From Desulfobacterales bacterium (GTDB taxonomy: Bacteria > Desulfobacterota > Desulfobacteria > Desulfobacterales > UBA2245): 64,000 nucleotides of DNA. This document shows, one piece after another, positions 14,575 to 30,348 of this stretch; the stretch's first letter is position 1; the number at the start of each line of letters is the position of its first letter. Under the pieces are notes generated by a model. The model was not told the origin of the DNA, searched no databases, and saw only the letters and a list, made by a program, of their open reading frames with translations. Where the stretch lies: the NCBI GenBank assembly GCA_040771865.1, contig JAXGZF010000003.1, positions 62,001 to 126,000 on the forward strand. The letters run 5' to 3'. The translations under genes were made by a program, and so were the position numbers.

Positions 14575-15018
14575 ATGAAGATTGAATTGAACAAAACCGA
14601 ATTTCGAGCGCTTCTGGAGCTTGTGGAAATAGCCTCATGGGTGCTGCACGCTCACAAGATCGATGAGCCGCCGGAAACCGAGGCTTACCGAAAGGTTGAG
14701 CAGAAAATTTTTTCCCAGGCCAAGAATTTCGGGTTAGAGAATCTTGTGGATTATGACGAGGACCTCAAAGAGTACTTCCCCTCCGGAACCTTTGAGGAAG
14801 AGAGCCCGGTGATGGAGTTCATCGAAGATTTCGAAAACGACACCTTCTGGGATCAGATGGTCGACCGGCTGGTAGAAAGAGACATGATCGAAGCCGAAGG
14901 AGAGGATGCTTACCTGGCCATGGAACTCGAGGATCGATTCGGCAAGGAAATGCCCCTTCGCGAAAAATACGCCGAAGAATTCGAGGCCAACGGCCTGGGG
15001 AACGTAAAGGTCGGATAA
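14575..15018 (+). CDS. Acidic hypothetical protein
   Basis: 147-aa ORF with AGGAG RBS and coding-like composition; no motif recognised. Confidence 0.7.
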   Translation: MKIELNKTEFRALLELVEIASWVLHAHKIDEPPETEAYRKVEQKIFSQAKNFGLENLVDYDEDLKEYFPSGTFEEESPVMEFIEDFENDTFWDQMVDRLVERDMIEAEGEDAYLAMELEDRFGKEMPLREKYAEEFEANGLGNVKVG

Positions 15019-15038
15019 CCCTCCTGCTATGCACCTGT

Positions 15039-15065
15039 GGGGGCCGGTTATCCGGATCGGCCCCC
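15039..15065. terminator. GC-rich hairpin between convergent genes
   Basis: GGGGGCCGGT-loop-ATCGGCCCCC. Confidence 0.45.
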
Positions 15066-15120
15066 GGCCTTTGTTTCTGCTTCGAAAACAGATTCTCCTG
15101 TTCCCCGAATCTCTTCTTCA

Positions 15121-16506
15121 TCAGCCGATCGGACACGAGGGCGCCAGATCCCGATCCAGATCGATTTCGTATTTTTTAATCTGCTTCCATATGGTGATCC
15201 GGCTGACGCCTAAGATTCGGGCCGCCTCGGATTGATTGCCCCCGGTTTGGCGAAGGGCCTCGATGAGCTTTTCGCGTTTTTGCATGCACGATGGATTCAG
15301 GCTGCAAACGGACCGGGCGCTGGTCTGAGGCGAAGCGATTTTCGGGGGCAGGTGATCGACGTCTATGGCTCCGCCGGGACAAAGGACAAAGGCGTATTCA
15401 ATGGCATTTCGAAGCTCCCGAATATTGCCGGGCCAGTGATGGTGAATCAGCCGGTCCATGGCTTCGGGGGTGATGCCGGAAATTTTTTTTCCGTTTTTGA
15501 CCGAGTTTCGCCCGATGAAGCTCTGAGCGATCAGGGGAATGTCCTCGCGCCGCTCGATCAGGGACGGACATTGAAGCGGAAACACGTTGATCCGGAAATA
15601 CAGATCCTCCCGGAACCCCCCCTGTTTGACCCGCGCTTCCAGATTTTTGTTGGTGGCGGTAATGATCCGCACATCCACCGGAATCGGCTTGTGGTCTCCC
15701 ACGCGTTCGATGGTTTTTTCCTCCAGCACCCGCAGCAGTTTGACCTGAATGGACAGGGGCATGTCTCCGATTTCGTCCAGAAAAATTGTTCCCTCGTGCG
15801 CCGCCTCAAAACGGCCGATGCGGTTCCGGTCGGCGCCGGTATATGCGCCCTTGACATGCCCGAACAGTTCGCTCTCCAGAAGATTTTCGTTCAGGGCCGC
15901 GCAGTTGACTTTTATATACGGCTTGTCCCTTCGGGCACCGGCCATGTGAACGGCCCGGGCGACCAGTTCCTTGCCGCTGCCGCTAGGACCCAGAATCATC
16001 ACCGGGGTATCGGTCTGGGCCACGTTTTCGATCAATTCAAAGAGGTTCTGCATGATTCCTGACCTGCCGATGATGCCGTGGTACCCGTCGTCCAGCTGAA
16101 AGGTTCTGCGCAGAGAATCGATTTCCTGCTGCTGCCGGATGCTTTCGGTGACGTCCGTCAGGGTTTCCACAGCGCCGATCACCTGCCCCTTCTCATCGTG
16201 AAGTACGGTTGCACTCTTGATCACATGGACGGTCCGGCCGTCCTTGTTGATGATCAGGCATTTCTTGTTCCAGACCACCCCTTCGGAATACAGGCTGCAC
16301 CATTCGGCGCCGGGGCCGGCGCCTTTGATCTTGCATCCGGTGCAGTTCAATATCCGGCAGGAACGGCCCATCAGTTCTTCGGCTGCATACCCCGTTATGC
16401 GTTCGGCGGCCGGGTTGACCGCCAGAATTTTTCCTCCTGGATCGACCACCATCAGTCCGTCCTGAAGGGTGTCAACGACTGTCTTCCAGTGTCTGGACAG
16501 ATCCAT
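15121..16506 (-). CDS. PAS-domain sigma54-dependent transcriptional activator (NtrC/Fis family)
   Basis: PAS N-terminus, GPSGSGKE Walker [31 protein letters not shown], Fis HTH. Confidence 0.95.
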
Positions 16507-16650
16507 GCGCAGGCGCTCCTTTGTGTTAACACGTTAACTTAACATTATTAACTTAAACAGCAGATCAAAAATATCAAGCAATAATTTTGAAAATTTCAAT
16601 AGCGCTTAAAAAAACAAGATGTTATGAATAAGTTGATACCTGCCTGAATT

Positions 16651-16667
16651 CTGGCATGCGGATTGCC
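16651..16667 (+). promoter_or_regulatory. Sigma54 (-24/-12) promoter
   Basis: CTGGCATGCGGATTGCC with exact GG-N10-GC spacing; divergent from a sigma54 activator. Confidence 0.8.
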
Positions 16668-16837
16668 ATAGATATGAAGCAGTCAGTCGGGGATGCAGTG
16701 AAATTTTCGACCCGCCGGGTGAAATGCGGTTCCCAAACCAGCGGGCCAAAGTCGAAAATACGGCTCCGTCCCGGCCGCTCCGACCGATATGATTTGATAG
16801 AGATATGAACCACATACAATGCAAAGGAGACTGCGCA

Positions 16838-17182
16838 ATGAAAAAATGGATTATGATCGCACTGACGTTTGTTTTTGTTTCCGGCGCCATCGGCATTGGG
16901 TTTGCCATGGAGCCGACAGGCAACGACCGCAAGGGTAAATACACTTATCGAAAGGTTTACAAGGCCTGCATGGCGCGTGGTGAGGTGAATTCCGAAACGC
17001 CACCGGTAAGCCCGATTGCCAAGACCCAGGCTGAATGGGCCCGGGTTTTTGAGGCAAAAGATTTCGCCGAGTTCGGTTGTGCGCCGGAGTGGAAAGCGCT
17101 CGCCGATGAGGATCTGCTCGATATTTTTACCTATCTGTACAACCATGCCTCGGATTCGCCTGCGCCCGCAACCTGCAAATAA
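16838..17182 (+). CDS. Small exported protein, cytochrome c-like but lacking CxxCH
   Basis: AAGGAG RBS, signal peptide, GNDRKGKYTYRK start typical of class I cytochromes c; VYKACM where a heme motif would be expected. Confidence 0.6.
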   Translation: MKKWIMIALTFVFVSGAIGIGFAMEPTGNDRKGKYTYRKVYKACMARGEVNSETPPVSPIAKTQAEWARVFEAKDFAEFGCAPEWKALADEDLLDIFTYLYNHASDSPAPATCK

Positions 17183-17263
17183 ACGTCGATCCTCAGAAGG
17201 GCGCGAAAATGTCAGGGCTGTTTTTATATCACTCCATGAACATTTTACATAAGGAAGGATCAT

Positions 17264-18388
17264 ATGAAACTTATAAAAGCAATCAAATGGACCATCGGAT
17301 TGACGCTGCTGCTGGCCGTCGGCATGGGATATGCCGCCCAGGAGAGCGCGGAACCGGGTGCCGCGGACGTTTCCTGGCGGTTTCACGATATCGTCGACAT
17401 GGAATTCGTGGCCCAGCACGTCAAGGTTCCAATGGACGAAAAAGTGATGATCATAGATGCCAGGCCCAGGCAGACCAAGTATGACGCAGGTCATATCCCC
17501 ATGGCGGTGAGCATTCCGGACACTCAGTTCGAGAAGATGACCGACAAATTGCCCAAGGATAAAAACGCGCTTTTGATTTACTACTGCGAAGGTCTGGACT
17601 GCCGGTTGAGCCACAAGTCCGCCAAAAAAGCCGAGGCGCTGGGTTACACCAACGTCAAAGTTTTTGCCGAAGGCTATCCGAAATGGATCTCGGTCAAGGG
17701 CCATTATCCTTCTGTTTCCGTAGAATGGGTGAAGAAACAGATCGACGCCAAGACCGATATGGTTCTGGTAGACTCCCGGCCCCGTCGCACCAAGTATGAC
17801 GCAGGCCACATTCCGACCGCCGTCAGCATTCCGGATTCGGAATTTGACAAACACATTGATCTGCTTCCACAGGACAAGGGTAAGCTGCTGGTTTTCTACT
17901 GCGAGGGCCTTCAGTGCAAGTTGAGCCACAAATCCGCGGCCAGGGCCATTGAAATAGGTTACACAAACGTGAAGGTTTTTTCCGAGGGATATCCGGCCTG
18001 GGCGGCCCATCTGAAGGCTCAGGGTCAGGCGCCTGTTACAGTGAAGGCCGGCAAGAACGAGGGAAGCATCGATCCGGCCGAATTCGAGAAAATGGTATCC
18101 GATAATCCGGAGAGCATTTACCTGGTTGACGTCCGGGATCCGGATGAATATGCGACCGGAAGTTTCAAGACCGCGGTGAACATCCCCATTGATGACCTGG
18201 AAAAGAAGCTGGATACGCTTCCGACCGACAAGCCTGTCGTATTTGTCTGCGGAACCGGCGCCAGAAGCGGAGAGGCTTATTACATGGTTCAGGATCTGCG
18301 GCCGGCCATGAAGAACGTCTACTATCTGGATGCGAAACTGACTTTTAAGAAGGACGGCTCCTTTGTCTTGAAGAAGCTTCCCGAATAA
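17264..18388 (+). CDS. Periplasmic triple-rhodanese-domain sulfurtransferase
   Basis: Signal peptide; DARP..YDAGHIP twice, DVRDPDEY; loops YCEGLDC, YCEGLQC, VCGTGARS. Confidence 0.9.
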   Translation: MKLIKAIKWTIGLTLLLAVGMGYAAQESAEPGAADVSWRFHDIVDMEFVAQHVKVPMDEKVMIIDARPRQTKYDAGHIPMAVSIPDTQFEKMTDKLPKDKNALLIYYCEGLDCRLSHKSAKKAEALGYTNVKVFAEGYPKWISVKGHYPSVSVEWVKKQIDAKTDMVLVDSRPRRTKYDAGHIPTAVSIPDSEFDKHIDLLPQDKGKLLVFYCEGLQCKLSHKSAARAIEIGYTNVKVFSEGYPAWAAHLKAQGQAPVTVKAGKNEGSIDPAEFEKMVSDNPESIYLVDVRDPDEYATGSFKTAVNIPIDDLEKKLDTLPTDKPVVFVCGTGARSGEAYYMVQDLRPAMKNVYYLDAKLTFKKDGSFVLKKLPE

Positions 18389-18451
18389 TGCGCCAGAAGA
18401 ATGCATTCCGGAAGTCAGGCTTCGGGATGCCAAACCACGAGGGGAATCGAC

Positions 18452-20077
18452 ATGATGCCAATCAGATGGATGCGCATTTTCTGCGTCGTGTTTGTTCTGT
18501 GCGCTCTAGGTGTCCTGGCGCACGCCGCGGATGACACCGCCGCCAGGTCGGCTCCTGGAAGGATCATGGCCCGGCAGGCAACTCAAGAGGTGCATGGCTG
18601 GACCACGGTGGATCACAGCCGGCTCGATGCACTAAAAAAACCTTTTGTCTCTGGAAAGCAGGTGACCGAGGCGTGCGTTTCCTGTCATTCCGAGGCGGCC
18701 TCCCAGTTTCATCAGACTATTCACTGGACCTGGCTCGGCACGGACCCGGATGCGGAAAAACGAATGGGCAAGGCCGGAGACTCGTTGAACAACTTTTGTA
18801 TTTCGGCCAACAACATGCAGGATAAAAGCTGCAACGCCTGTCATCCGAGCTGGAACGGGCAGGGGACCAAAGGCGAAGTCAACTGTCTGGTCTGTCACGG
18901 CCGGCAGCAAATCAACTGGACCGAGGCATTTGACGATCTGAACGCCTTTTCGGGCTCCGATGATCCGGAAGAGCAAACGATTGCGGCGGATATTCAGACC
19001 AATATTCAGCAGGCGGTCCAGAGCGTGATCCGCCCTGCCCGGGAAAACTGCGGATCGTGTCATTTCTATGGCGGCGGCGGCGACGGGGTCAAGCACGGAG
19101 ACCTGGATTCCTCGATTGCGCAGCCCCTCAAAACCCTGGATGTCCATATGGGTGTTGACGGAAAAAATTTCCAATGCACCCGGTGTCATACCACGATTCG
19201 GCACAATGTGGCCGGCCGGATTTATTCCCGGCCCGCAGCCGCGGATCGAAAAAGTCTGATCGAGGATGACCTTATCGCCAAAATCACCTGCGAGTCCTGC
19301 CACAGCGCAACGCCGCACAAGGCCGGTTCAAAGGCCAATGATCACACGGACAGAGTCGCCTGCCAGAGCTGCCACATTCCGCTGTTCGCCCGGCAGAATC
19401 CCACCAAGACCTGGTGGGACTGGTCCAAAGCCGGAATCCTTCAAGACGGCAAGAAATACAAGGAAAAGGGCGAGTTCGACAGAGATGTCTACATGACCAT
19501 CAAGGGCGAGATGAGATGGGAAAAAGATGTCAAACCCGAATACTTCTGGTTCAATGGCTCCATGAACACGCTGACGATCAAGGACTTCATCGATCCGGAA
19601 AAAATCGTTGCGGTCAGCGCACCGGTAGGAAGCCGGGAAGACAAGAACGCCCGCATATTCCCCTTTAAGATTCACCGGGGAAAACAGCCCTACGATACAG
19701 TCCAAAAGGTTTTGCTGGCCCCGATGCTGTCCGGAAAAGACGGATATTGGGAGACCCTGGACTGGCAGAACGCCATTGAAAAGGGCATGCAGGCCCTGAA
19801 CGCGTCTTATTCCGGATCATTTGATTTTGTGGAAACCACCTATGCGTTTCCCATCACCCATATGGTGGCGCCTAGAGACAATGTGGTTCGCTGCGCCGAG
19901 TGTCATACAGACCAGGGCGGACGGCTCGCCAGTCTGACCGGATTTTATATGCCCGGACGCGACAGGGCCGGCTGGATGGATACCTTGGGATGGCTCGCGG
20001 TTCTCGGGGCGTTGGCCGGTGTCGCCCTTCACGGACTGGGGCGGGCTTTTTCCCGCAGGAGCGGAAAGGAGAGCTGA
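18452..20077 (+). CDS. Octaheme c-type cytochrome, tetrathionate reductase (Otr) family
   Basis: Eight CxxCH motifs (CVSCH, CNACH, CLVCH, CGSCH, CTRCH, CESCH, CQSCH, CAECH), NNFC, GGGGDGVKHGDLDSS, C-terminal TM helix. Confidence 0.92.
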   Translation: MMPIRWMRIFCVVFVLCALGVLAHAADDTAARSAPGRIMARQATQEVHGWTTVDHSRLDALKKPFVSGKQVTEACVSCHSEAASQFHQTIHWTWLGTDPDAEKRMGKAGDSLNNFCISANNMQDKSCNACHPSWNGQGTKGEVNCLVCHGRQQINWTEAFDDLNAFSGSDDPEEQTIAADIQTNIQQAVQSVIRPARENCGSCHFYGGGGDGVKHGDLDSSIAQPLKTLDVHMGVDGKNFQCTRCHTTIRHNVAGRIYSRPAAADRKSLIEDDLIAKITCESCHSATPHKAGSKANDHTDRVACQSCHIPLFARQNPTKTWWDWSKAGILQDGKKYKEKGEFDRDVYMTIKGEMRWEKDVKPEYFWFNGSMNTLTIKDFIDPEKIVAVSAPVGSREDKNARIFPFKIHRGKQPYDTVQKVLLAPMLSGKDGYWETLDWQNAIEKGMQALNASYSGSFDFVETTYAFPITHMVAPRDNVVRCAECHTDQGGRLASLTGFYMPGRDRAGWMDTLGWLAVLGALAGVALHGLGRAFSRRSGKES

Positions 20078-20080
20078 CCC

Positions 20081-20737
20081 ATGGCTAAAAATCTGATCCC
20101 GATTTATCTGTATACCCGATACGAGCGGTTCTGGCACTGGTTTCAAGCGGCAATGATCGTCGTTCTTCTGATCACCGGTTTTGAGGTACACGGGCTTTTT
20201 CGCCTGCTCGGTTTTAATCTTGCCGTCAAGGTGCATAATTTTGTGGGAATTACCTGGCTGATCGCTTTTGCATTCTTTGTATTCTGGGTGTTCACCACTG
20301 GAGAGTGGCGCCAGTATGTTCCCACCACGCAAAAAATGTTCGCCGTTGTGCGCTACTACGCGTACGGCATATTCCGCGGCGAGGCTCACCCGGTTCCAAA
20401 GCGTAAAGACGCCAAGCACAATCCGCTCCAGCGCCTGGTCTATCTGATGCTGGCCGCCACGCTGCTTCCGATTCAGATGCTCTCCGGGTTTCTTTACTGG
20501 GGATACAATTCCTGGGCCGACTGGGGACTGGACTGGCTCGGCCTCGAACCGCTTGCCCTGCTGCACATGGCCGGCGCTTTTTCCATTCTGGTCTTTCTGG
20601 TGACGCATGTGTATATGACCACCACGGGCCACAGTATTTTTGCACATACCAAGGCCATGATTACCGGTTGGGAAGAAATAGAGGAAGGCGAGATTCAGGA
20701 CTGGGAAAGGTCCGTCAAGCCGACCTGCGAAACCTGA
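20081..20737 (+). CDS. Membrane cytochrome b subunit (PhsC/hydrogenase cyt b-like)
   Basis: ERFWHW, ITGFEVHG, KHNPLQRL, LH..GAF...HVYMTTTG; four TM segments. Confidence 0.88.
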   Translation: MAKNLIPIYLYTRYERFWHWFQAAMIVVLLITGFEVHGLFRLLGFNLAVKVHNFVGITWLIAFAFFVFWVFTTGEWRQYVPTTQKMFAVVRYYAYGIFRGEAHPVPKRKDAKHNPLQRLVYLMLAATLLPIQMLSGFLYWGYNSWADWGLDWLGLEPLALLHMAGAFSILVFLVTHVYMTTTGHSIFAHTKAMITGWEEIEEGEIQDWERSVKPTCET

Positions 20738-20766
20738 CGTCAGCCAAAGCGCGCCATGCAAATTCG

Positions 20767-20802
20767 AGGGCCGGTTCTTCAGAAAAGGACCGGCCCTTGT
20801 TT
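20767..20802 (+). terminator. Probable intrinsic terminator
   Basis: AGGGCCGGTTCT-loop-AGGACCGGCCCT followed by TGTTT. Confidence 0.55.
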
Positions 20803-20839
20803 ATGGTTAGGGTTGATGTCGTCCTTCCGAAGAAAAAGC

Positions 20840-20884
20840 TTGACAAATCTGTTGCACAACAATACCGTTGTACAACAGATTTGT
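20840..20884 (+). promoter_or_regulatory. Promoter overlapped by an 18-bp inverted repeat operator
   Basis: TTGACA 20840-20845, TACCGT 17 nt later; arms ACAAATCTGTTGCACAAC / GTTGTACAACAGATTTGT (1 mismatch, 6-nt spacer). Confidence 0.7.
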
Positions 20885-20918
20885 TGTGTATATTAACCCA
20901 GCAATGGGAGGCCTATTC

Positions 20919-21677
20919 ATGGAACTCACCCAGTCCCAGCTTGAGAGCGTCAGAAACCAGATTCCGGAACCCTATAATACACCACAGAGATTTGGCGAAT
21001 TTATCCGTCAGAAGGTTCAGCCGCACAAAACGCTTTGTACGTTGGTCATGGCGGAGATCGACAAGATTTTGGCGCCTTTGATCCAGCAGTATGAAAAACG
21101 TTTCTTTTGCAGAATCGACGACAGCCACCAGCTAAAGACGCCGGAAAGCATTATCGATAAGATTTTTCGGCCTCCCAAGAAAAATTCAAAGGCCGGAGAA
21201 CCCATACCGTCCATATATGATCTGAAAAATTTTGATAGGACCATGACCGATCTTGCGCGGTTTCGAATTGTCTGTAATTTTTTGAGCGACGTCAAGATCG
21301 TTGAAGAAGCCATCTATAAATCCGAAAAGTTGAATCAGAAATTTAACATCAAACACGAATCCACTATCGATCAGAGGCCAAAATTGCGCAAATCCGGTGA
21401 ACGGTCCGTGAAATTTGTGCTGGAATATAAAAATCAACCCGGGTTGTTCCTGGAAATCCAGGTCATGACCCAATTGCAGGAGGCATGGGACAAAAAGGAT
21501 CATTTTCTGGTTTATGAAACCCGACGCCGTGATCCGGAAAGCGATGAGGAAAATTTTTCGGATTTCCTGGATGCCAAGATGAATGCCATGTCTGAACTTC
21601 TCTACGTGGCGGATAATTACTTTGAAGATCTGAGAAGTTCCCGCGAAGAACTTGGAAAAAACAAGGGGGGCCGATGA
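20919..21677 (+). CDS. RelA/SpoT-domain small alarmone synthetase-like nucleotidyl/pyrophosphotransferase (divergent)
   Basis: LKTPESIIDK, TDLARFRIVCNFLSDV, SGERSVK, LEIQVMTQLQEAW..DH.LVYE; GGAGG RBS before ATG 20919. Confidence 0.85.
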   Translation: MELTQSQLESVRNQIPEPYNTPQRFGEFIRQKVQPHKTLCTLVMAEIDKILAPLIQQYEKRFFCRIDDSHQLKTPESIIDKIFRPPKKNSKAGEPIPSIYDLKNFDRTMTDLARFRIVCNFLSDVKIVEEAIYKSEKLNQKFNIKHESTIDQRPKLRKSGERSVKFVLEYKNQPGLFLEIQVMTQLQEAWDKKDHFLVYETRRRDPESDEENFSDFLDAKMNAMSELLYVADNYFEDLRSSREELGKNKGGR

Positions 21678-23218
21678 AACTTCGAAAAGAAACATTCCAT
21701 ACAGGGCATTTGCTGGCTTTTATATCCAAACAGGACGCAACCGATAATTTTTCAATATTTTTTCCAGTCCAGGGACTTGACCAATTCGACAGCCTTTTGA
21801 AAATTACCCGGGGATTTGAGCGTTGCTTTGATCATTACCGGGAGCGATTTGAGTTTGTTGAATACTCCATTGCGGATTTTGGGCGAATTGAAGAGGCCTT
21901 TCAGAATGTTGACAGAAAACGCCTTGTCGTCTTTGACCAATCCAGCTTTCTGGACAGTGATCTTCAGTTTGTCGAACGCCTTGGAAGCATTGTGCTTGAA
22001 AGGCTTTCCGGACAATTTGATCCGATTTTTCCGAACATTGTGACTGGTGCAAATGCAACCGGATCAGATTTCTATGACCGCCGGCAGACCATTGAGAAAA
22101 TCTTTGAACTTTTGGATGAGGGAAAAAACATCCTGTTCAGAGCGCCCCGGCGTTATGGGAAAAGCAGTCTCCTGAAACATATCGCAAAGTATCCGCCAGC
22201 CAGCTGGCATGTCTGCTATATCGACCTTGAAGGTGGAAAGTCCTGCGAGGATTTTGTGGAGCAGATATTAAAAGGGCTGCTATTTAACCCTTCATGCAGT
22301 TATTGTCTCCCGGATGAAATTTCCGTCCAGAAAATCGGCGAAAAGTCAGAGATGGAAAAAATGGATTTTATCCGGAAAGAGCGGAACAAGATCCGAAAAA
22401 GTTGGAAATCTTATGCAGAAAATCTTTTTAAATCGGTGAATAACAGGGCCGGTGATAAAAAGATTCTCCTTGTTTTAGACGAGGTGTCTTTTCTCATTGA
22501 AGACGTTCTGGGGCATCCTGAAGGAAACAAACAAGAGGTCCAGGAACTTCTTGTTTGGTTTCGGGAGATTCGGGAGCAAATGGATCGTGTTCAATTGATT
22601 CTTTCAGGCTCTGAACATCTTCCGACGTTTTTAAAAGGTTATGAAATTGATGAAGGCCTTCTGGCTGATCTAATACCGGTGAGCCTGGATCTTTTCGATG
22701 CGCAGACAGCCGAAGATTTCATTTTTTTGACGCTGGCCGGTCAGAAAATCGGGGTTGTACGGGAAGAGATCAATCATATGCTCGGCTTAATCGGCAAACC
22801 GATACCGTATTTTCTTCAGCTCTTTCTGGATGCGATTTGTCGTGTTTGTCGCGAAAAACATCAGAATCTTACCTGTGATGATCTTACGGAGATTTATTAT
22901 CAGAATTTATTGGGGGCGGACAGCAAGCGCTATTTTGAATCCATTCAAAGGCAACTCGACCGCTACCGCCGGTTTGGCGTTAAAGGCAGTTCGGCTGCCT
23001 TGCGCATTTTAAATGAGCTTGCCAATACAGAAACGCGATCCATAGATCAGTTGCAAGTCCTTTGGCAGGTGGAAACCGGATCAGTCGAGCGATTTGAAGT
23101 CATGATGGGAATTTTGCAGGATGATTTTTACATCCGGATAGAAAACAATAATACTGCCTCCTTTGACAGCAAGCTTTTAAAGGACTGGTGGAACCGGCAC
23201 GTCCTGCCTTCAGCTTAG
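21674..23218 (+). CDS. STAND-like/AAA P-loop ATPase with ~118-aa N-terminal extension
   Basis: DFYDR, Walker A APRRYGKSS, Walker B LLVLDE, LILSGS, PYFLQ, C-terminal LLKDWW; ATGA overlap with the upstream gene. Confidence 0.85.
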   Translation: MKLRKETFHTGHLLAFISKQDATDNFSIFFPVQGLDQFDSLLKITRGFERCFDHYRERFEFVEYSIADFGRIEEAFQNVDRKRLVVFDQSSFLDSDLQFVERLGSIVLERLSGQFDPIFPNIVTGANATGSDFYDRRQTIEKIFELLDEGKNILFRAPRRYGKSSLLKHIAKYPPASWHVCYIDLEGGKSCEDFVEQILKGLLFNPSCSYCLPDEISVQKIGEKSEMEKMDFIRKERNKIRKSWKSYAENLFKSVNNRAGDKKILLVLDEVSFLIEDVLGHPEGNKQEVQELLVWFREIREQMDRVQLILSGSEHLPTFLKGYEIDEGLLADLIPVSLDLFDAQTAEDFIFLTLAGQKIGVVREEINHMLGLIGKPIPYFLQLFLDAICRVCREKHQNLTCDDLTEIYYQNLLGADSKRYFESIQRQLDRYRRFGVKGSSAALRILNELANTETRSIDQLQVLWQVETGSVERFEVMMGILQDDFYIRIENNNTASFDSKLLKDWWNRHVLPSA

Positions 23219-23249
23219 AGCAGCAAACTCTGAAAGGAAAACAGCATCA

Positions 23250-26200
23250 ATGGAATCCTTGTATCCCTATACTCCCAGAAAATCGAGTTTTGAAGATTTA
23301 AAACACACTTTTGTGGCCCGGCAGGTGCTGCTCGATGAACTGCTGGAAGCCGTTTCTACGCAAAGCGGGATGGACTCGCTCCAGCATTGGATGATTCTGG
23401 GCGCCAGGGGAATGGGAAAGTCTCATCTCATCACCATGGCCTATCATATGGTAAAGCGCGATGAGAAGCTATCGCAACAATGGCTTCCGGTGCTGATGAA
23501 TGAGGAAGAACATGGCGTTTTTTCATTACATACTTTGTTTATTCGCATATTGACCAAGCTTGGCGAGGAGCTTTCAGACGCTGATAACAAAGCCTCTGAA
23601 GCGATTATGCAGTTTCTCGACAAGTTAAGGGATTCGGGGGGAACTCAGGATGAAATCCTTGAGAACGTTGTGGCTTACCTCAAGGATTTTGTGAAAAATT
23701 CCGGCAAAAGATTGCTGGTGTTGCTGGAAAACGCCGATGAACTTTTGACCCGGTATCTTCCCCGCAAAAACGATATCAAGAAATTCCGCCATATCCTTCA
23801 GAACGACGCCTTTCTCATGCTGATCTGCACATCGCCGACTCTTTTCGAAGGAATCAGCAGCAGCAAGGCGCCGCTATATGATTTTTTCCGCATCCGCCAG
23901 CTGGACCTTTTAAACTACGAATCGTCGGTGGATTTGCTGAACCGGTGGGCAGAACTGGAGGGAAAATCAGAGGCAAAGCAAAAGCCTTCCCTGCGTTTTC
24001 GGGAAAACGATTACAGGCTGCGCGTACTCTATCATCTGACCGGCGGAAATCCCCGGATTCTCCTGTTTTTGTACATGGCCATCAGCGGGCAGGACGGGAT
24101 TCAAAGCGCTGTGGATACCTTCAGCAAGCTGCTTGAAGAAGATCTGAGCAGCTACTATCTGAGCCGGATGCGCGATCTTTCCAATCAGGTTCAGCCCATT
24201 GTGGTTGCCCTTGCGGAAAGCTCAGGGAGTCTGACCCAGACAGAAATTGCCAGGCTTACGTTTTTGCCGGCCAAGAGCATTGGAACGGCAATGGTGCGAT
24301 TGGAACAAGACGGCTTAGTCAGAGCAGTATCCGAGAAGAAAGGCAAAAACACCCTCTATGCCTTGACGGATCAGTTGTTTCGACTGTGGCATCAGTGGCG
24401 TACGCGCACCGATGAGCGTCGGGTCATCAAAGCGGTGGTGGAATTTCTGGCCGTTTGGTACCGCAAAAGACAGCTCATTCAATGGTCCGGCGATGAGGGA
24501 ATATCAGGGGCTTATTGCAAGGAAGCCTTGGCCTTTCGTGAAAGTCAGGGTTTCCGAAAGGTAATAGAACCGTTTTGCCGGGATAGCGAGAAATATATTG
24601 ATGAACATCTTGCTCGGAAAGATTATCCGGCGGTTTTTGATGCCTTAGATCTTTTGAAAGAATATGGGGTTTCGGTCGCAGATTTGTGGAAAAGCGCATT
24701 TGCGAGAGTGAAACAAGATAAAGGAATTGACGATGCTGAAGAATATTTCCGGCAGCGCATAAAAAAAGATGAAAGCGATCTTGAAGCGATTTTGGGCTTG
24801 GGACGGCTTCTGATTGCGAAAGAGAATTACGCAGGCGCTGAGGAGGCTTTTAGCCGGGCCGTGGAACTGTCCCCGGAAGATGGGTCCTTATGGGGTAATT
24901 TAGGGCTGGCGCGAGGGCGTCAGGAGAATCACGCAGGCGCTGAGGAGGCTTTTAGCCGGGCCGTGGAACTGTCCCCGGAAGATGGGTCCTTATGGGGTAA
25001 TTTAGGGCTGGCGCGAGGGCGTCAGGAGAATCACGCAGGCGCTGAGGAGGCTTTTAGCCGGGCCGTGGAACTGTCCCCGGAAGATGGGTCCTTATGGGGT
25101 AATTTAGGGCTGGCGCGAGGGCGTCAGGAGAATCACGCAGGCGCTGAGGAGGCTTTTAGCCGGGCCGTGGAACTGTCCCCGGAAGATGGGTCCTTATGGG
25201 GTAATTTAGGGCTGGCGCGAGGGCGTCAGGAGAATCACGCAGGCGCTGAGGAGGCTTTTAGCCGGGCCGTGGAACTGTCCCCGGAAGATGGGTCCTTATG
25301 GGGTAATTTAGGGCTGGCGCGAGGGCGTCAGGAGAATCACGCAGGCGCTGAGGAGGCTTTTAGCCGGGCCGTGGAACTGTCCCCGGAAGATGGGTCCTTA
25401 TGGGGTAATTTAGGGCTGGCGCGAGGGCGTCAGGAGAATCACGCAGGCGCTGAGGAGGCTTTTAGCCGGGCCGTGGAACTGTCCCCGGAAGATGGGTCCT
25501 TATGGGGTAATTTAGGGCTGGCGCGAGGGCGTCAGGAGAATCACGCAGGCGCTGAGGAGGCTTTTAGCCGGGCCGTGGAACTGTCCCCGGAAGATGGGTC
25601 CTTATGGGGTAATTTAGGGCTGGCGCGAGGGCGTCAGGAGAATTACGCGGGTGCTGAGGAGGCTTTTAGCCGGGCCGTGGAACTGTCCCCGGAAGATGGG
25701 TCCTTATGGGGTAATTTAGGGCTGGCGCGAGGGCGTCAGGAGAATTACGCGGGTGCTGAGGAGGCTTTTAGCCGGGCCGTGGAACTGTCCCCGGAAGATG
25801 GGTCCTTATGGGGTAATTTAGGGCTGACGCGAGTGTCTCAGGAGAATTACGCAGGTGCTGACGAGGTTTATAGCAAGGCCGTGGAGTTGTTCCCGAAAAA
25901 TAAGTATTATTGGGGAGGCTTGGGATTTGCGCGAGTGTCTCAGGAGAATTACGCAGGTGCTGAGGCGGCTTATAGCAAGGCCGTGGAGTTGGCACCGGAG
26001 GATGCGTATTTGTGGAGAATGTTGGGCGTGGCGCGATCGGATCAGGAGGATTACGCAGGTGCCGAGGAGGCTTTTAGCAAGGCCGTAGCCTTGGCTCCGG
26101 AGAATGCGATATTTTGGAGCAATCTGGGCGAGGTGCGATTGGCTTTAGGTGATAGTATGGGGGCTGAAAAGGCATTGATAAAGGCGGTGGAATTAAATCC

Positions 26201-26639
26201 GACGCCCAAAACAAAGGCTCGTATCGGGTTATTGCTATCTTTTATAAACGTAAAAAATCAGGATAACGGTTTATTTAAGAAGAACGTGAGCGAAGCGGTT
26301 TTTATTTTAGATCAGACCGATGCGTTAAAAGAAGAAGATCAGCAGGCTGTTATTGGAGATATTTTTGACGTCCTGACAGCTGTTTTAAATCAGAGCAATA
26401 TCAATGCCATTCGCACTTATCTCGCAGGCATCCGAGAGGCATCTGAAGATCTTGGACGGATATTCAAGCCGTTTGATTATGTTTTGGATTACTTTGATGC
26501 GCTTTTTGCAGCGCAAGCCGATAAAAAAGCAACCGCCGATCGCGCCCAGCGAGTGCTGGACAGCGTGGCCAGCGAAATCAAGGGGCCGGTTGAAGGTATG
26601 ATCGAAAAAATAAAAAATCGCCTGAACCGTTCTGATTAA
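23250..26639 (+). CDS. STAND-like ATPase - winged HTH - TPR array protein
   Basis: FVAR, Walker A GARGMGKS, variant Walker B LVLLENAD, TGGNPR (STAND GxP), wHTH LTQTEIARLTFLPAKSIGTAMVRLEQDGLV, about 14 TPRs. Confidence 0.88.
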   Translation: MESLYPYTPRKSSFEDLKHTFVARQVLLDELLEAVSTQSGMDSLQHWMILGARGMGKSHLITMAYHMVKRDEKLSQQWLPVLMNEEEHGVFSLHTLFIRILTKLGEELSDADNKASEAIMQFLDKLRDSGGTQDEILENVVAYLKDFVKNSGKRLLVLLENADELLTRYLPRKNDIKKFRHILQNDAFLMLICTSPTLFEGISSSKAPLYDFFRIRQLDLLNYESSVDLLNRWAELEGKSEAKQKPSLRFRENDYRLRVLYHLTGGNPRILLFLYMAISGQDGIQSAVDTFSKLLEEDLSSYYLSRMRDLSNQVQPIVVALAESSGSLTQTEIARLTFLPAKSIGTAMVRLEQDGLVRAVSEKKGKNTLYALTDQLFRLWHQWRTRTDERRVIKAVVEFLAVWYRKRQLIQWSGDEGISGAYCKEALAFRESQGFRKVIEPFCRDSEKYIDEHLARKDYPAVFDALDLLKEYGVSVADLWKSAFARVKQDKGIDDAEEYFRQRIKKDESDLEAILGLGRLLIAKENYAGAEEAFSRAVELSPEDGSLWGNLGLARGRQENHAGAEEAFSRAVELSPEDGSLWGNLGLARGRQENHAGAEEAFSRAVELSPEDGSLWGNLGLARGRQENHAGAEEAFSRAVELSPEDGSLWGNLGLARGRQENHAGAEEAFSRAVELSPEDGSLWGNLGLARGRQENHAGAEEAFSRAVELSPEDGSLWGNLGLARGRQENHAGAEEAFSRAVELSPEDGSLWGNLGLARGRQENHAGAEEAFSRAVELSPEDGSLWGNLGLARGRQENYAGAEEAFSRAVELSPEDGSLWGNLGLARGRQENYAGAEEAFSRAVELSPEDGSLWGNLGLTRVSQENYAGADEVYSKAVELFPKNKYYWGGLGFARVSQENYAGAEAAYSKAVELAPEDAYLWRMLGVARSDQEDYAGAEEAFSKAVALAPENAIFWSNLGEVRLALGDSMGAEKALIKAVELNPTPKTKARIGLLLSFINVKNQDNGLFKKNVSEAVFILDQTDALKEEDQQAVIGDIFDVLTAVLNQSNINAIRTYLAGIREASEDLGRIFKPFDYVLDYFDALFAAQADKKATADRAQRVLDSVASEIKGPVEGMIEKIKNRLNRSD
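24822..25841 (+). repeat. Ten tandem 102-bp (34-aa TPR) repeats
   Basis: Units start every 102 bp from 24822; seven appear identical (24924-25637); diverged TPRs continue to about 26200. Confidence 0.97.
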
Positions 26640-26863
26640 AGCGGCTCAGATGTTGCGGTTCAAAATCTTGCGACGCTTGCGGGGGCAACCGACTTGTAGG
26701 CGAATATCCCTTTGACAGTCCCAAGCATTCTATTTTATAGAATTGACGTTTGACGGCTTCGTAAAAAGCCAATTTCTGCTGCAAGTCCATCTTTGCCAGG
26801 CTGTAGAAAAGCAAGAATCAGCCTGTTGAAACCGGCAACCCATTTTGAACAAGGAGTGTGATC

Positions 26864-27766
26864 ATGGCCATACATCAGCCCATGAAGGATCTGTATCTGG
26901 TGGATCTGGACCAGTCTCTGGAAGGGTTTCGAAATTTTATCAGCAGCTGGGTGCTCAAGCGCCAGGGGAAAACCATTGTGGTGGACCCCGGCCCCAGGGC
27001 GACCATTCCGGTTTTGACGGAAGCCCTCAAAAAGCTGGATGTGAAAAAAATCGACTATATTCTCCTGACCCATATTCATATCGACCATGCCGGTGGAACC
27101 GGGCTGTTGATGAAGGATTATCCGGACGCCCAGGTGATCTGCCACGACAAGGGAATCAAGCACATGGTCGAACCGGCAAAGCTCTGGGCCGGGTCGCTCA
27201 AGGTGCTGGGCAAGGTGGCGGAGGCATACGGAGAGATTGCGGCCATTCCCAAGGACAACATTCAATATCAGCAGAGCGTCCAGGCCGGTCCCCTTGAGTT
27301 CGAGGTTCTGGAAACGCCGGGCCATGCCGTGCATCACATCTCGTTCAGGCTCGATGATCTTCTCTTTGCCGGAGAGGTGGCCGGCGTCAGTTATCCATTT
27401 GATGACGGCCTGTACATCCGGCTGGCCACGCCGCCGGTTTTCATCTACGAGGTGTTTAAAAGTTCCATCGAGAAGGTCGCGGCCCTGAATGTCTCACATT
27501 TCTGCTTCGGCCACTACGGATACCGCCGGGACGTCAAGGCGATCTGCGATACGGCCCTCAATCAGCTCGACAACTGGATGGCGGTGGTGGAAAAACATCA
27601 CAAGGCCGGAACGGAACCGTTTGCGGAAGCCGTTTTTGACGAGGTGTTGAAAAACGACCGGGGGCTTTCCCTGTTTTCAAAGCTTCCCGCGGATGTTCAG
27701 CAGCGCGAGAAATACTTCTGCTTCAACAGCTTTAAGGGCATGCGGGATTATTTCAAGGAAAAATAG
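26864..27766 (+). CDS. MBL-fold metallo-hydrolase
   Basis: VVDPG, THIHIDHAGG, TPGHAVHH, CFGHYG; AAGGAG RBS. Confidence 0.9.
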   Translation: MAIHQPMKDLYLVDLDQSLEGFRNFISSWVLKRQGKTIVVDPGPRATIPVLTEALKKLDVKKIDYILLTHIHIDHAGGTGLLMKDYPDAQVICHDKGIKHMVEPAKLWAGSLKVLGKVAEAYGEIAAIPKDNIQYQQSVQAGPLEFEVLETPGHAVHHISFRLDDLLFAGEVAGVSYPFDDGLYIRLATPPVFIYEVFKSSIEKVAALNVSHFCFGHYGYRRDVKAICDTALNQLDNWMAVVEKHHKAGTEPFAEAVFDEVLKNDRGLSLFSKLPADVQQREKYFCFNSFKGMRDYFKEK

Positions 27767-27787
27767 GACGATTTTGTATGCAGTCAG

Positions 27788-27818
27788 AAAGCCGGCCGGA
27801 CCTTTCCCGGTCGGCTTT
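27788..27818. terminator. Bidirectional hairpin between convergent genes
   Basis: AAAGCCGGCCGG-loop-CCGGTCGGCTTT. Confidence 0.6.
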
Positions 27819-29361
27819 ATTTTTCGGAAGTGTCGGCAATCGGGTGAAGCTCCCAGATGGGAAGATCGGCTTCGCCCTGTCTTTTTTCTGCCCGCCGGGT
27901 TTCTTCCCGGTGAACGCTCAGCGAAAGATAGATCAGGGCGGCCCGCACCATCTTGAGGATCTGCAGGGTCTTGGCCTGAAAATCCGTGATCGATACCGAA
28001 AATACGAGCTGCCCCTTGGCCGGCTTGGCGGCCGACGTTGAATCCTTTTGCAGCTTGAAATACCGGTGCTCCATATAGTTTCGAATGCCGTGAAGTTTTC
28101 GGGCCTCGGGTTCAAGGGCCTCTTCGAATCCGGGTTTGGCCTCGTAAAGATCCTTGCACAGCCAGTACAGCCCCCGCAGCGGCCAGTTCTGAAGATCCGC
28201 CAGCTGGGGACGCAGGGTTTTGACGCTGCCCGTGGGTTCGTGCCACAGGGTTCTGGCGTTGATCTTCTTGTCCGGAACGTCCAGGCTCAGATAGTTTTTC
28301 AGGAAAAACGCGATCTTGTCAAAAATGGCATAGGCCACGCGAAAGGCGATCTTGACCTTTTCGGCGGCAAGGCCGTAGACCGGATGGTCCAGGGTGTCGT
28401 ACAACAGCACGTTCCGGTCCGAAAAATGGGTCTGGTCGCAGATGATTCCCTCATAATACAGCCATCGGGCCGATACGAACTCCTGTTTCATCAGGTTGAA
28501 AAATCCGTGATAATCCGGCGCGTCTTCCTGTCTGACCACCATGGCCGGCAGGGACAGGCTGTCCGAGGCCCCCGTCCGGCCGGGCGTCAGGTCGTTGAGC
28601 GGATTGATGAACAGTCGGTTTTCCAGACACCAGGACCGGTATTCCGCTTCCGGTTGCGCCGCTTCGGGATCGCCCCCATCGAGGTCCGGAAAGGCTGCCG
28701 AATGCCGGTCAAACACGGACCGAAGATCGAAGAGGTATTCGGAAAACAGGGCTCTGGCCGATGGGTTCAGGTCCTGCTTCAGGGCCTGGTCCAGGTCTTC
28801 CATGGCCTTTCGAAGAAAAATCATGGCCTGGGTTTCGTCATATAGGCTGTGGGCATAGTGTATCCGCACATACCCGCGGTTTCCCCGGGCCAGGGCAAAG
28901 CCGGGGTTTTCCGACAGGGCCCGGTCCCAGTAAGCCAGTGCCTCGACAAACCGGCCCACATGGCTCATGGTTGCGGCCAGGTTCGCGTAAACCGGGCATG
29001 GATTGATTTTGCCCCGCTCCGAAGCCGCCATGGCCTGATAGACGTTAAGGGACCGGCGAAGCCAGATCATCTGCTTTTCGACCGCCTCGTCGTCCCAGCG
29101 CCAGAGATCCGTGTCGTTCCGGATCGACAGTTTATGCAGGTTGCCCCAGATATTGGAAACATGATAATAGAAGATCGTCTTTTGCGCGTCGGTCAGGGGC
29201 CGTTCCGCCAGCTGATCGGCCAGAAGGAGCGCCTGCCTGAGGCCCTTTTCTTTCCTGGCCTCAAAGGCGGCGTCGGCCATCAGGCCGATATGGGCCACGG
29301 CCTGATCCGTATTCAGGGCGGAAATATTTTTGATGCTTACAAGTTTCTGGTATGAATTCAT
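27817..29361 (-). CDS. TPR + LA2681-like HEPN domain protein (predicted RNase)
   Basis: TPR (YANLAATMSHVGRFVEALAYWDRAL), YRSWCLENRLFINPLND, FNLMKQEFVSARWL, NWPLRGLYWL, RxxxxH motif RNYMEH; start set at ATG 29361. Confidence 0.82.
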   Translation of the reverse strand: MNSYQKLVSIKNISALNTDQAVAHIGLMADAAFEARKEKGLRQALLLADQLAERPLTDAQKTIFYYHVSNIWGNLHKLSIRNDTDLWRWDDEAVEKQMIWLRRSLNVYQAMAASERGKINPCPVYANLAATMSHVGRFVEALAYWDRALSENPGFALARGNRGYVRIHYAHSLYDETQAMIFLRKAMEDLDQALKQDLNPSARALFSEYLFDLRSVFDRHSAAFPDLDGGDPEAAQPEAEYRSWCLENRLFINPLNDLTPGRTGASDSLSLPAMVVRQEDAPDYHGFFNLMKQEFVSARWLYYEGIICDQTHFSDRNVLLYDTLDHPVYGLAAEKVKIAFRVAYAIFDKIAFFLKNYLSLDVPDKKINARTLWHEPTGSVKTLRPQLADLQNWPLRGLYWLCKDLYEAKPGFEEALEPEARKLHGIRNYMEHRYFKLQKDSTSAAKPAKGQLVFSVSITDFQAKTLQILKMVRAALIYLSLSVHREETRRAEKRQGEADLPIWELHPIADTSEK

Positions 29362-29526
29362 CTTTTTCGGCAACCCGCAGCGTGTGTATTTTACCCGTCC
29401 AATGTACCCGGATGCCGAATTCGGCGCAAGCCCAATTGTGGAAGGATGATCCGGCCGTTTCGGGTTTTTGAATTTTGCTGGTTGTTTATTGAGTGATACA
29501 GAAAGGCGGTTTTGATGCGTTCCGGA

Positions 29527-30171
29527 ATGAAAACCTGCATCTTTGACGTTAACGGGGTCTTGATCGACTCCAATACGGCCAACGCTCAAGCCATGGCCGA
29601 GGCCTTCACCGACCGGCCGGACCTGCGGGAAAAGATCGCCGGCATCTACCTGACCCTGACCGGCATCGACCGGGGGACCAAGATACGGCACATTCAGGAG
29701 CGTGCCATCGGGACGCCTTTCGAGGAAGGCGAATTCGAGCTGAGGTGGCAGCGGTTCAAGTCCCTTTCCGGCGCGAGCATGCGCAGAGCCGGGCTGACCC
29801 GTGGCTGCAAGGCGGTTCTGGATGAGCTGGGACGCCGGGGGATCCGGCGCGTGGCCCTTTCTAACACGCCCCTGGAAGAGCTTTCAAAAACCGTGGCCGC
29901 CAAAGGAATCAACGCATCGCTTGACGTGGTGCGCGGCGGCGGGGACTGGTCGAAAAGCGAATCCCTGCGCCGGCTTTTAAAAGAATTTGAAATGGACCCG
30001 GATCATTGCGTGTTTGTCGGAGACGGCCGCGGGGATCTGACGGCGGCTCAGGATTCAGGGGTCTTTTTTGTGGGCATCGATCCGAACACGGGGGAATTTG
30101 ACGGCCGAAGCGGTTTTGACGGCCCTTACCCCGCCCTGGCGGACTGGGCCAGGGAATGGAAGATCCTCTGA
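29527..30171 (+). CDS. HAD-superfamily hydrolase
   Basis: IFDVNGVLIDS, ALSN, K, FVGDGRGD motifs. Confidence 0.85.
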   Translation: MKTCIFDVNGVLIDSNTANAQAMAEAFTDRPDLREKIAGIYLTLTGIDRGTKIRHIQERAIGTPFEEGEFELRWQRFKSLSGASMRRAGLTRGCKAVLDELGRRGIRRVALSNTPLEELSKTVAAKGINASLDVVRGGGDWSKSESLRRLLKEFEMDPDHCVFVGDGRGDLTAAQDSGVFFVGIDPNTGEFDGRSGFDGPYPALADWAREWKIL

Positions 30172-30348
30172 AACGATTTGAGCAGACGGCGAAGCGGAAG
30201 CACTTTCATTTTCCCGGCGGTTGAAAAACAAGAACCCGGTTGTCGGGCAAGGCGTGCGGAGATGCGACAAGCGCGGCATATTCAAGCATTTGTGAGCGTT
30301 GGTGAGAGTCGCGCAACGCTGCATGGCGGCCCTGGCGCAGTTTTTCAG

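Follow-up and report, generated by a model that had tools for sequence, protein, structure and literature searches.

What does a protein with the RelA/SpoT synthetase fold do when it keeps the residues of catalysis and replaces those that hold the acceptor? The question is raised by gene 1, which encodes a divergent small RelA/SpoT-type synthetase-fold protein of 252 amino acids (20919..21677, forward strand) in a 64,000-nucleotide stretch of DNA from a Desulfobacterales bacterium (assembly GCA_040771865.1, contig JAXGZF010000003.1, positions 62,001 to 126,000), hereafter the window. An earlier note on this DNA had described altered motifs in the gene. We find that gene 1 is the first gene of a conserved three-gene cassette, which that note had missed, and this context changes the view of the likely purpose of the enzyme. 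The reading that we favour, and to which we give about an even chance, is that the cassette is an NLR-like conflict module in which an ATP-dependent pyrophosphokinase serves as trans-acting effector and uses a non-canonical acceptor.

By profile, fold and catalytic core, the gene 1 product is a member of the RSH synthetase superfamily. The frame around it is open from 20868 to 21677 (forward strand), but the coordinates given in the earlier note are exact, because the ATG at 20919 lies 9 nt downstream of a GGGAGG Shine-Dalgarno sequence and the start methionine is shared by homologs; the stop ends at 21677. Pfam RelA_SpoT (PF04607) matches residues 72–201 with 35 bits, passing the cut-off of 27. 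Foldseek ranks RelP and RelQ first for an AlphaFold2 model from a 30-sequence alignment (pLDDT 88.3), at E 2e-9 to 3e-8 and TM 0.70–0.77 on the target; RelP 6fgx has E 2e-9 and RelQ 5ded has TM 0.77 on the target, and CapRel (7ztb) and Tas1 (6ox6) rank below them. The NCBIfam GTP diphosphokinase equivalog NF053588 gives 32.3 bits against a cut-off of 320. A separate long RSH protein is encoded in the same genome (a 726-amino-acid frame, 149.5 bits), and a plasmid search returned a single weak match, at 25% identity, to an annotated GTP pyrophosphokinase.

The motifs were placed with HMMER alignments of gene 1 to solved RelQ (5f2v) and RelP (6fgk, 6ewz), and the substitutions that the earlier note had listed against the RelP/RelQ consensus all stand. 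DLARFR aligns on DIAGLR/DIAGVR, GERSVK on GYRSYH/GYRSLH, EIQVMT on EIQIRT, and DH on EH. The Arg of the RxK motif is lost, with Q71 in its place (profile consensus 'shkiKspesiidki' vs RelP 'KSRVKSFESIVNKL'), and the guanine-stacking Tyr and the His of GYRSxH are replaced by E161 and K165. A word-indexed homolog search with gene 1 returned 239 proteins at E <= 0.001, and residues were counted over the 120 homologs listed. The Mg-binding Asp and the catalytic Glu, which the note had taken to be retained, are D111 (120/120) and E179 (119/120); Q181 and H195 are found in 119 each, R116 in 120, K73 in 116, K81 in 113, R84 in 100 and S77 in 98, which completes the set of kept donor-site and catalytic residues. 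Where the note had left room for the substitutions being unconserved, they are conserved: R114 in 119, E161 in 108 (His in 5, Tyr in none), K165 in 113, M183 in 113 and D194 in 118. At position 71 the residue varies (Q 34, K 31, T 12, L 11, R 9). Homologs from other phyla, at 23–38% identity, keep DLARFRIV and have Glu or His at the Tyr position. Since they are conserved in this way among the listed homologs, the motif changes are not chance. The family also has invariant residues of its own (R61, N120, R157, W190-D191-K192-K193, Y199, R203), and the signature of the gene 1 clade can be written as Q71 (no Arg), R114 (for Gly), E161 (for Tyr), K165 (for His) and M183 (for Arg).

When 1.84 billion representatives were searched exhaustively with the profile, 2135 matched at E <= 0.001, only 172 of them at <= 1e-10 and 71 at <= 1e-30; the clade is therefore small. 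Among the best 150 of the 2135, aligned to the profile, representatives with Arg at position 114 have Tyr at 161 in 0 of 95 cases (His in 50, Glu in 33, another residue in 12), a residue other than Arg at 71 in 88 of 92, and Arg at 183 in 0 of 94. Representatives with Gly-114 have Tyr at 161 in 19/24, Arg at 71 in 14/23 and Arg at 183 in 11/24. Four changes are thus linked: the acceptor Tyr to Glu or His, the DxxGxR Gly to Arg, the loss of one Arg that stacks on the donor adenine, and the EIQIRT Arg to Met, Gln or Val. Judged from these alignments, they go together, are old, and form the signature of a deep clade; counts over related proteins define such a clade and are not to be taken for independent co-evolution. 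The nearest relatives with canonical Gly and Tyr (P0334, P0348-P0351 and P0353; DxxGxR/K, GYRAxH) are 508–546 amino acids long, carry a long helical, possibly TPR-like (tetratricopeptide repeat) C-terminal extension, and have an LLQEAW...H helix in common with the gene 1 family. They are a possible sister group, in which a small alarmone synthetase (SAS) would be fused to its own sensor.

What these residues do is described for several relatives. SaRelP stacks the donor adenine between R78 (the RxK Arg) and R112, binds the phosphates through K80, K88, R91 and S84 and Mg through D107 and E174, and contacts the ribose with H190; the Tyr is critical for guanosine binding (PMC5794853). An equivalent two-Arg adenine sandwich is described for Rel (PMC7983052). 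FaRel2 binds the donor adenine through R64, R95, Q147 and G93, the last of these being the DxxGxR Gly; its specificity for adenine comes from E145, and the acceptor base is held by Y128. The same account places the conserved Tyr also in Rel, RelP and Tas1 (PMC11782079), and the Y128A substitution is reported to abolish activity (bioRxiv 10.1101/2021.04.30.441581). The same Tyr thus holds the purine acceptor in the characterised alarmone makers, (pp)pApp toxins and tRNA pyrophosphokinases (PMC5794853, PMC11782079).

Set against these descriptions, gene 1 is intact in its phosphate cradle, Mg ligands, ExQ motif and ribose-contacting His. The Arg pair on the donor adenine is halved, R116 being kept and Q71 standing for the other Arg, and the G-loop has E161 in place of the guanine-stacking Tyr. 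The earlier note had described all of this as a rewiring of acceptor-nucleotide motifs. That description holds for the Tyr; the RxK Arg and the DxxG Gly belong to the ATP-donor site, and the His of EH, which serves the donor ribose, is kept. Because a stacking Arg is lost and the Gly at the donor adenine has become Arg, the donor site is remodelled too, and not the acceptor site alone. ATP is probably still the pyrophosphate donor, since ExQ and the phosphate cradle are kept. The note's expectation that the product is probably not (p)ppGpp fits these data: ordinary (p)ppGpp appears unlikely because the Tyr that stacks on the acceptor base is replaced throughout the family. Its proposed alternatives of (p)ppApp or tRNA modification are not favoured, since such enzymes keep the Tyr (FaRel2 Y128, CapRel Y155, Pag1B Y129). 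We infer that the acceptor would not be bound in the way that GDP/GTP, ATP or the tRNA A76/CCA-adenosine is bound in characterised relatives.

Gene 1 does not stand alone. Gene 2 (21674..23218, forward strand) encodes a 514-amino-acid ORC/STAND-like NTPase and begins with an ATG that overlaps the gene 1 stop (ATGA); gene 3 (23250..26639, forward strand) encodes a 1129-amino-acid NTPase-winged-helix-TPR protein. We surveyed 79 metagenome loci, 59 of which extend at least 600 nt 3' of the gene 1 match and 34 at least 2600 nt. Gene 2 lies downstream in 50 of the 59 by tblastn and in 57 when seven divergent frames are included, each of about 500 amino acids, starting MRLRNE... and having APRR[MT]GKT and a C-terminal ..HWW.. 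motif; the two loci without a detected gene 2 (L100, L101) are outliers at 24–29% identity. Gene 3 follows in 33 of the 34 longer loci. The order 1-2-3 recurs in 14 genome loci, from Desulfobacterota-type metagenome-assembled genomes (MAGs), Acidobacteriota and Myxococcota. On a contig labelled as a Lentisphaeria MAG (L003), the cassette has 93% protein identity and is preceded by the rhodanese and multihaem cytochrome genes that also lie upstream in the window; the contig is syntenic with the window organism despite its label. No small open reading frame for an antitoxin or immunity protein was found between the upstream terminator and gene 1; the conserved neighbours are only the 514- and 1129-amino-acid NTPases.

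The exhaustive profile search also recovered three natural fusions of gene 1 to gene 2 (P0284, 768 amino acids; P0296; P0335). In P0284, which keeps DDLVRFRIV and GGERSYK, the matches have E 8e-16 to gene 1 and E 1e-34 to gene 2. The word-indexed search had found no fused or longer forms among 1170 candidates, a negative that must therefore reflect its limit of sensitivity. Structure prediction gives weak support to a complex of the two proteins, with a score of 0.54 (runs 0.54, 0.42, 0.72), the best of three controls scoring 0.00; at least 58% of contacts agree between runs, and the partner pLDDT is at least 78. Of 157 solved complexes, 116 reach the mark that this score passes, as do 2 of 215 mismatched pairs, but only 18 of the 157 solved complexes, along with both passing mismatches, pass it at 0.60 or under.

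The two partners resemble the NTPases of STAND and NLR proteins. Gene 2 has a homolog family of 91 proteins, whose contigs coincide in many of their lengths with those of the listed gene 1 homologs. In its model (AlphaFold2 pLDDT 88.7), residues 1 to ~115 form a conserved alpha/beta domain without family assignment, and residues ~117–510 form an ORC/Cdc6-STAND-like module with Walker A APRRYGKS at 157–164, Walker B DE at 269–270 and a C-terminal winged helix, so that the nucleotide-binding, helical and winged-helix domains of STAND/NLR proteins are all present. Pfam AAA_14 (30.1 bits, cut-off 27) and AAA_22 (27.1, cut-off 27) pass, and ATPase_2, at 31.8 bits, falls just below its cut-off of 33.2. 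In VIA-align, residues ~117–510 superpose on the archaeal ATPase_2 proteins PAB2304 (2qen; Z 21.8) and SSO1545 (2fna; Z 20.6) over 325–328 residues, on plant NLR resistosomes at Z 16–17 and on Avs3/Avs5 at Z 12–14; ORC/Cdc6, TnsC/MuB and CED-4 are also among the fold matches. The archaeal proteins have the same xPRRxGK[ST]-type Walker A, whereas the conserved N-terminal domain of ~115 residues is extra in gene 2 and without a match: fold matches barely reach residues 1–115, and an Atlas lead (0.86) points to an unnamed cluster.

Gene 3 begins directly with its NTPase domain (GARGMGKS at about residues 51–58) and lacks an effector domain at its N-terminus. Residues ~318–362 form a winged-helix, MarR-like region, after which a TPR array runs to about residue 990. 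Pfam TPR_1 scores 295.5 bits in 14 stretches, and AAA_16 (30.8 bits, cut-off 32.6) and MarR_2 (21.6, cut-off 27) remain below threshold. The N-terminal ~400 amino acids are conserved in all related loci, while in the six distant loci compared, the C-terminal part varies, with other TPR types or no Pfam match, as the repeat sensors of STAND/NLR proteins vary among relatives. Part of the array is a tandem repeat at 24822..26086 (forward strand) of 12.4 near-identical 102-bp units, each encoding a 34-amino-acid TPR (Tandem Repeats Finder: period 102, 94% matches, score 2043), and the GC skew peaks there (0.265 at 24001–26000). The copy number could be mis-assembled, as DNA contigs of run X3 leave 24920–25381 without cover. 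By BLASTP, genes 2 and 3 show no significant similarity to one another (best E 0.65) and are not seen as paralogs.

A further element appears to travel with the three genes. Upstream of gene 1 lies a putative promoter/operator (20840..20894, forward strand), a reading drawn from conservation, with TTGACA at 20840–20845 as the −35 hexamer and two palindromic boxes 16 nt apart, GTTGCACAAC at 20851–20860 and GTTGTACAAC at 20867–20876; a further, third half-box lies at 20883. An inverted repeat of 18 nt (20843–20860 / 20867–20884) comprises the boxes, box 1 lying between TTGACA and a weak −10 and box 2 just after the −10; a sigma-70 consensus scan did not call the promoter, the −10 matching at 3 of 6 positions. 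Exact boxes occur four times in the 64 kb, two of them here. The TTGACA-box-box layout is also found upstream of homologs from other phyla: an exact GTTG-N1-2-CAAC box precedes the gene in 10 of 13 sources (the window and 12 genome loci) and in 45 of 55 metagenome loci, 23 of which have at least two, against a background of 7 boxes in 309,771 nt elsewhere in the same metagenome loci. That such a cis element accompanies the cassette from phylum to phylum implies that the cassette itself encodes a DNA-binding protein, and the winged-helix parts of genes 2 and 3 are candidates for binding the boxes. Together with the rare natural fusions, the conserved operator supports an obligatory pairing of gene 1 with the NTPases.

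The cassette is accessory and moves horizontally, as is evident from its patchy presence, a clean empty site, a lower G+C content and unrelated flanks elsewhere. The family profile matches in 1 of 61 genomes, the window's own (G000); neither the same-genus genome G001 (completeness 99%) nor any of 59 from the same order has a match. Nevertheless, the gene 1 family is scattered over several phyla. The window from 15000 to 20752 aligns with G001 (C17:95364-101119) at 93%, as does 26819–30183 (C17:101493-104857, 93%), and only ~370 bp separate the two matches in G001. Compared with G001, the cassette is thus an insertion or deletion at 20800..26695; its ends are approximate, from reading both junctions, the first lying just 3' of the terminator of a cytochrome b gene. 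Its G+C content is 0.46–0.48, against 0.555 and 0.58–0.60 in the flanks. No integrase, target duplication or terminal repeat was seen.

How would such a cassette work? In the favoured reading, gene 1 would be the enzymatic subunit and effector of a self-contained, horizontally moving system, using ATP as pyrophosphate donor and transferring pyrophosphate to an acceptor bound in a non-canonical way. Gene 2, translationally coupled to gene 1, would hold the enzyme in check; the TPR protein of gene 3 would sense a trigger, most likely a phage or other invader, upon which the enzyme would be released or activated and would stop the growth of the infected cell, as in NLR-like and Avs systems with an effector in trans. 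The winged helix of gene 2 or gene 3 would bind the boxes and autoregulate the operon. There are precedents in the literature: RelA_SpoT is described as an effector domain at the N-terminus of NLRs in fungi (PMC4986451), a RelA nucleotidyltransferase domain as a rare effector in vWA-MoxR ternary conflict systems (PMC7159879), and the SAS effector of PANGU as activated, rather than neutralised, by its partner (bioRxiv 10.64898/2026.04.06.716658). In a bolder form, which we consider possible but doubtful, the Arg-114 / Glu-or-His-161 clade would be a new RelA/SpoT catalytic class that pyrophosphorylates, or modifies with ATP in some other way, a new kind of acceptor (another nucleotide, a metabolite or a protein), serving as the trans-acting executioner of a two-NTPase NLR-like receptor. 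The RelA_SpoT effector domains of fungal NLRs are unexplained, and the clade could be their prokaryotic counterpart.

Comparison with known systems shows what is shared and what is new. RelP and RelQ (6ewz, 6fgx, 5ded, 5f2v) have in common with gene 1 the single-domain synthetase fold, the Mg Asp, ExQ, the Lys/Ser/Lys/Arg cradle, the second adenine-stacking Arg and the ribose His, at ~17–22% identity; they differ at the five changed positions (Tyr to Glu, His to Lys, EIQIRT Arg to Met, Gly to Arg, and the first stacking Arg lost), lack the extra N-terminal helical part of ~60 residues with its conserved PYNT motif, and are encoded alone rather than with two NTPases. Toxic small alarmone synthetases (toxSAS), of which FaRel2, CapRel and PhRel2 are described as tRNA CCA pyrophosphokinases and FaRel and Tas1 as (pp)pApp synthetases, are, like gene 1, accessory, horizontally spread SAS genes in tight operons with a binding partner, the binding being predicted in the case of gene 1. 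Growth arrest by ATP-dependent pyrophosphotransfer is the likely common logic, with the toxicity of gene 1 a prediction. However, toxSAS keep the acceptor-stacking Tyr (FaRel2 Y128, CapRel Y155), reported as essential for toxicity (bioRxiv 10.1101/2021.04.30.441581, PMC11782079), where gene 1 has Glu, and their partners are small antitoxin domains or hydrolases instead of NTPases. PANGU type I has two genes, for the sensor Pag1A, a nucleoid-associated protein, and the GRel SAS effector Pag1B (bioRxiv 10.64898/2026.04.06.716658); Pag1B is described as keeping the catalytic Tyr (Y129) and making pppGpp, whereas gene 1 is without the Tyr and has two STAND/ORC-like NTPases as partners. STAND/NLR receptors, such as the fungal RelA_SpoT NLRs and Avs, have the NTPase, winged helix and TPR-type repeat sensor of the cassette, and the fungal proteins use RelA_SpoT as effector moiety, as proposed here. 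The TPR/ANK/WD arrays of fungal NLRs are described as highly similar tandem repeats (PMC4986451), conserved and length-polymorphic, which the near-identical units of gene 3 resemble. Unlike these receptors, the cassette has its effector as a separate protein, fused rarely and then to the short NTPase only, and has two NTPases in place of one; the AAA_16 match of gene 3 is, moreover, below the Pfam cut-off.

Several explanations compete with an invader-sensing module. The operon could be a three-part addiction or stress module of the toxin-antitoxin (TA) type, with gene 1 a toxic pyrophosphokinase, gene 2 its neutraliser and autorepressor, and gene 3 a modulator. The overlap of the gene 1 stop with the gene 2 start, the fused forms and the weakly supported complex (0.54 against 0.00 for the best control) suit it, as do the boxes at the promoter hexamers, palindromes between or after such hexamers being usual in type II TA autoregulation. 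Conserved two- or three-gene SAS operons have also been taken to indicate toxicity (Jimmy et al., PMC7229694). Yet the toxSAS antitoxins described so far in PMC11782079 and PMC8832971 are small (pZFD, Tis1, SAH, Panacea), not NTPases of 514 amino acids, and a 1129-amino-acid NTPase with a hypervariable TPR array does not belong in a simple TA pair and has the look of a sensor; we regard this explanation as rather unlikely. Only a little less credit goes to a physiological signalling module, in which the enzyme would make a diffusible nucleotide (an unusual alarmone, or some (p)ppGpp or (p)ppApp) and the winged-helix NTPases would be its regulators or receptors. The intact catalytic core, the winged-helix regions in both partners with a conserved operator, and the housekeeping genes in the flanks would be expected of it; MalT-type STAND proteins are transcription regulators, and 8bob is among the gene 2 fold matches; and the long RSH of the genome, of bifunctional type, could degrade an alarmone. 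But a physiological regulator would not usually be present in 1 of 61 related genomes, be missing from an empty site within the genus and yet have members in several phyla. The near-identical TPR units and variable C-terminus fit a diversifying sensor, no conserved effector or target gene stands beside the cassette in the flanks of the genome loci, and gene 1 is without the acceptor-stacking Tyr that is present in the alarmone synthetases of PMC5794853 and PMC11782079. We judge signalling unlikely.

The residues themselves bear on the other two. A pseudoenzyme, in which pyrophosphate transfer would be lost and the RelA/SpoT fold would regulate the two NTPases as a subunit that binds ATP or acts as a scaffold, would account for the missing donor-adenine Arg, the Arg in place of the adenine-contacting Gly, and the replacement of the acceptor Tyr, the GYRSxH His and the EIQIRT Arg, and inactive nucleotide-generating domains are described in related conflict systems (Kaur et al., PMC7159879). 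Against this, the Mg Asp, ExQ, triphosphate Lys/Ser/Lys/Arg and ribose His are found in 98–120 of the 120 listed homologs and are kept in members at 23–38% identity, and new invariant basic residues (R114, R157, K192, K193) have appeared in the same region. Because the catalytic residues are kept and such basic residues are gained, changed specificity fits better than decay, and we hold a pseudoenzyme to be improbable. That gene 1 encodes, in spite of its substitutions, a normal housekeeping small alarmone synthetase producing (p)ppGpp is very improbable: the Pfam match, the rank of RelP and RelQ among structural matches, and one source that labels homologs 'ppGpp synthetase/RelA/SpoT-type nucleotidyltransferase' speak for it, but the equivalog score (32.3 vs 320 bits), the absence of the guanosine-binding Tyr from 120/120 listed homologs, the accessory distribution and the obligatory link to two NTPases do not.

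The NLR-like reading has evidence against it as well, which we gather here. The conflict role is argued from architecture and distribution, and activity, toxicity and defence are predictions. In 11 other genome loci, the cassette is flanked mostly by housekeeping genes, and possible conflict-type neighbours are few: a Fic protein (L011), a ResIII helicase (L015) and, in the window, a HEPN_LA2681-TPR gene. No defence-island enrichment was found around the cassette in the window and these 11 loci, because such neighbours are few and the HEPN gene also occurs in the cassette-free G001. Palindromic operators are more typical of TA or plain regulatory operons and, to our knowledge, are not a known feature of Avs-type systems. 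The predicted gene 1–gene 2 complex, though supported, is a weak pass. Loss of the stacking Arg together with the change of Gly to Arg could mean that ATP binding is altered or lost. Moreover, the family has a median pI of 6.1, whereas tRNA-binding toxSAS are basic; a nucleic-acid target would on this account be disfavoured, a weak argument on which we do not rely. Finally, searches of defence and phage families gave little: PHROGs returned weak matches to families of unknown function, and PADLOC returned a partial match to the single-gene candidate PDC-S33 (E 1.4e-9, profile positions 37–174 of 349). As an identity for gene 1, PDC-S33 is ruled out, the partial match being to the common RelA/SpoT core of a different protein.

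We found no description in the literature of a RelA/SpoT gene with two NTPases, nor of the clade, which may already sit, named or not, among the 30 SAS subfamilies of PMC7229694. The available portions of supplements sd04-sd06 of that paper contain no sequence with the gene 1 family motifs, one sequence file showing long RSH records, and the accessible text of PMC3153485 has no subgroup that matches the family. Because the Tyr and donor-site residues are replaced together while the catalytic core is intact, the clade is a defined place to seek a new reaction in the RelA/SpoT superfamily. If the NLR-like reading is true, a three-component architecture, with the effector separate from the sensors, would be added to the bacterial NLR-like systems. 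The cassette also provides a bacterial model, tractable in experiments, for the presence of RelA_SpoT domains in fungal NLRs, as it can be moved whole into a laboratory strain because it spans 5.9 kb with its own putative promoter.

The surroundings of the cassette have features of their own. Directly 3' of it is a metallo-beta-lactamase-fold gene (26858–27766, forward strand), of which the copy in the window is also found in cassette-free G001; a different gene of this fold, of alkyl-sulfatase type, lies 3' of the cassette in an Acidobacteriota locus (L010:14362-15639), probably by coincidence. The HEPN_LA2681-TPR gene (27817–29691, reverse strand; 624 amino acids) encodes TPRs and a C-terminal LA2681-like HEPN domain (PF18733, 234 bits), an RNase domain of the conflict-system type, 1.2 kb from the cassette in a region shared with G001. 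An interspersed repeat of ~130–140 bp, which looks like a miniature inverted-repeat transposable element or a repetitive extragenic palindromic sequence, occurs once in the window (30209–30348), and in more than 40 copies at 79–89% identity across the contigs of G001 (loci L018-L023); one copy lies exactly at the cassette-free site of G001 (C17:101352-101492). In the RNA library of run X5, a contig over the downstream metallo-beta-lactamase gene runs, 5' of 26819, into letters that resemble the repeat end of the G001 empty site, which suggests that the sample contains a strain without the cassette. In two metatranscriptome runs (X5, X6), the RNA contigs cover flanking genes only, which says nothing either way on expression of the cassette. 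A wastewater run of another study contains 82% of the sampled words of the stretch, matching at identities of at least 99%. Farther downstream, two large DUF5338 proteins are encoded at 35240–36946 (568 amino acids) and 37443–40412 (989 amino acids, the second also NosD-like and with CarboxypepD_reg). They lie in a stretch of low G+C content (0.40 at 38001–40000), followed on the minus strand by an insertion-sequence-type integrase (rve, HTH_21; 40732–41562), and this stretch may be another acquired island.

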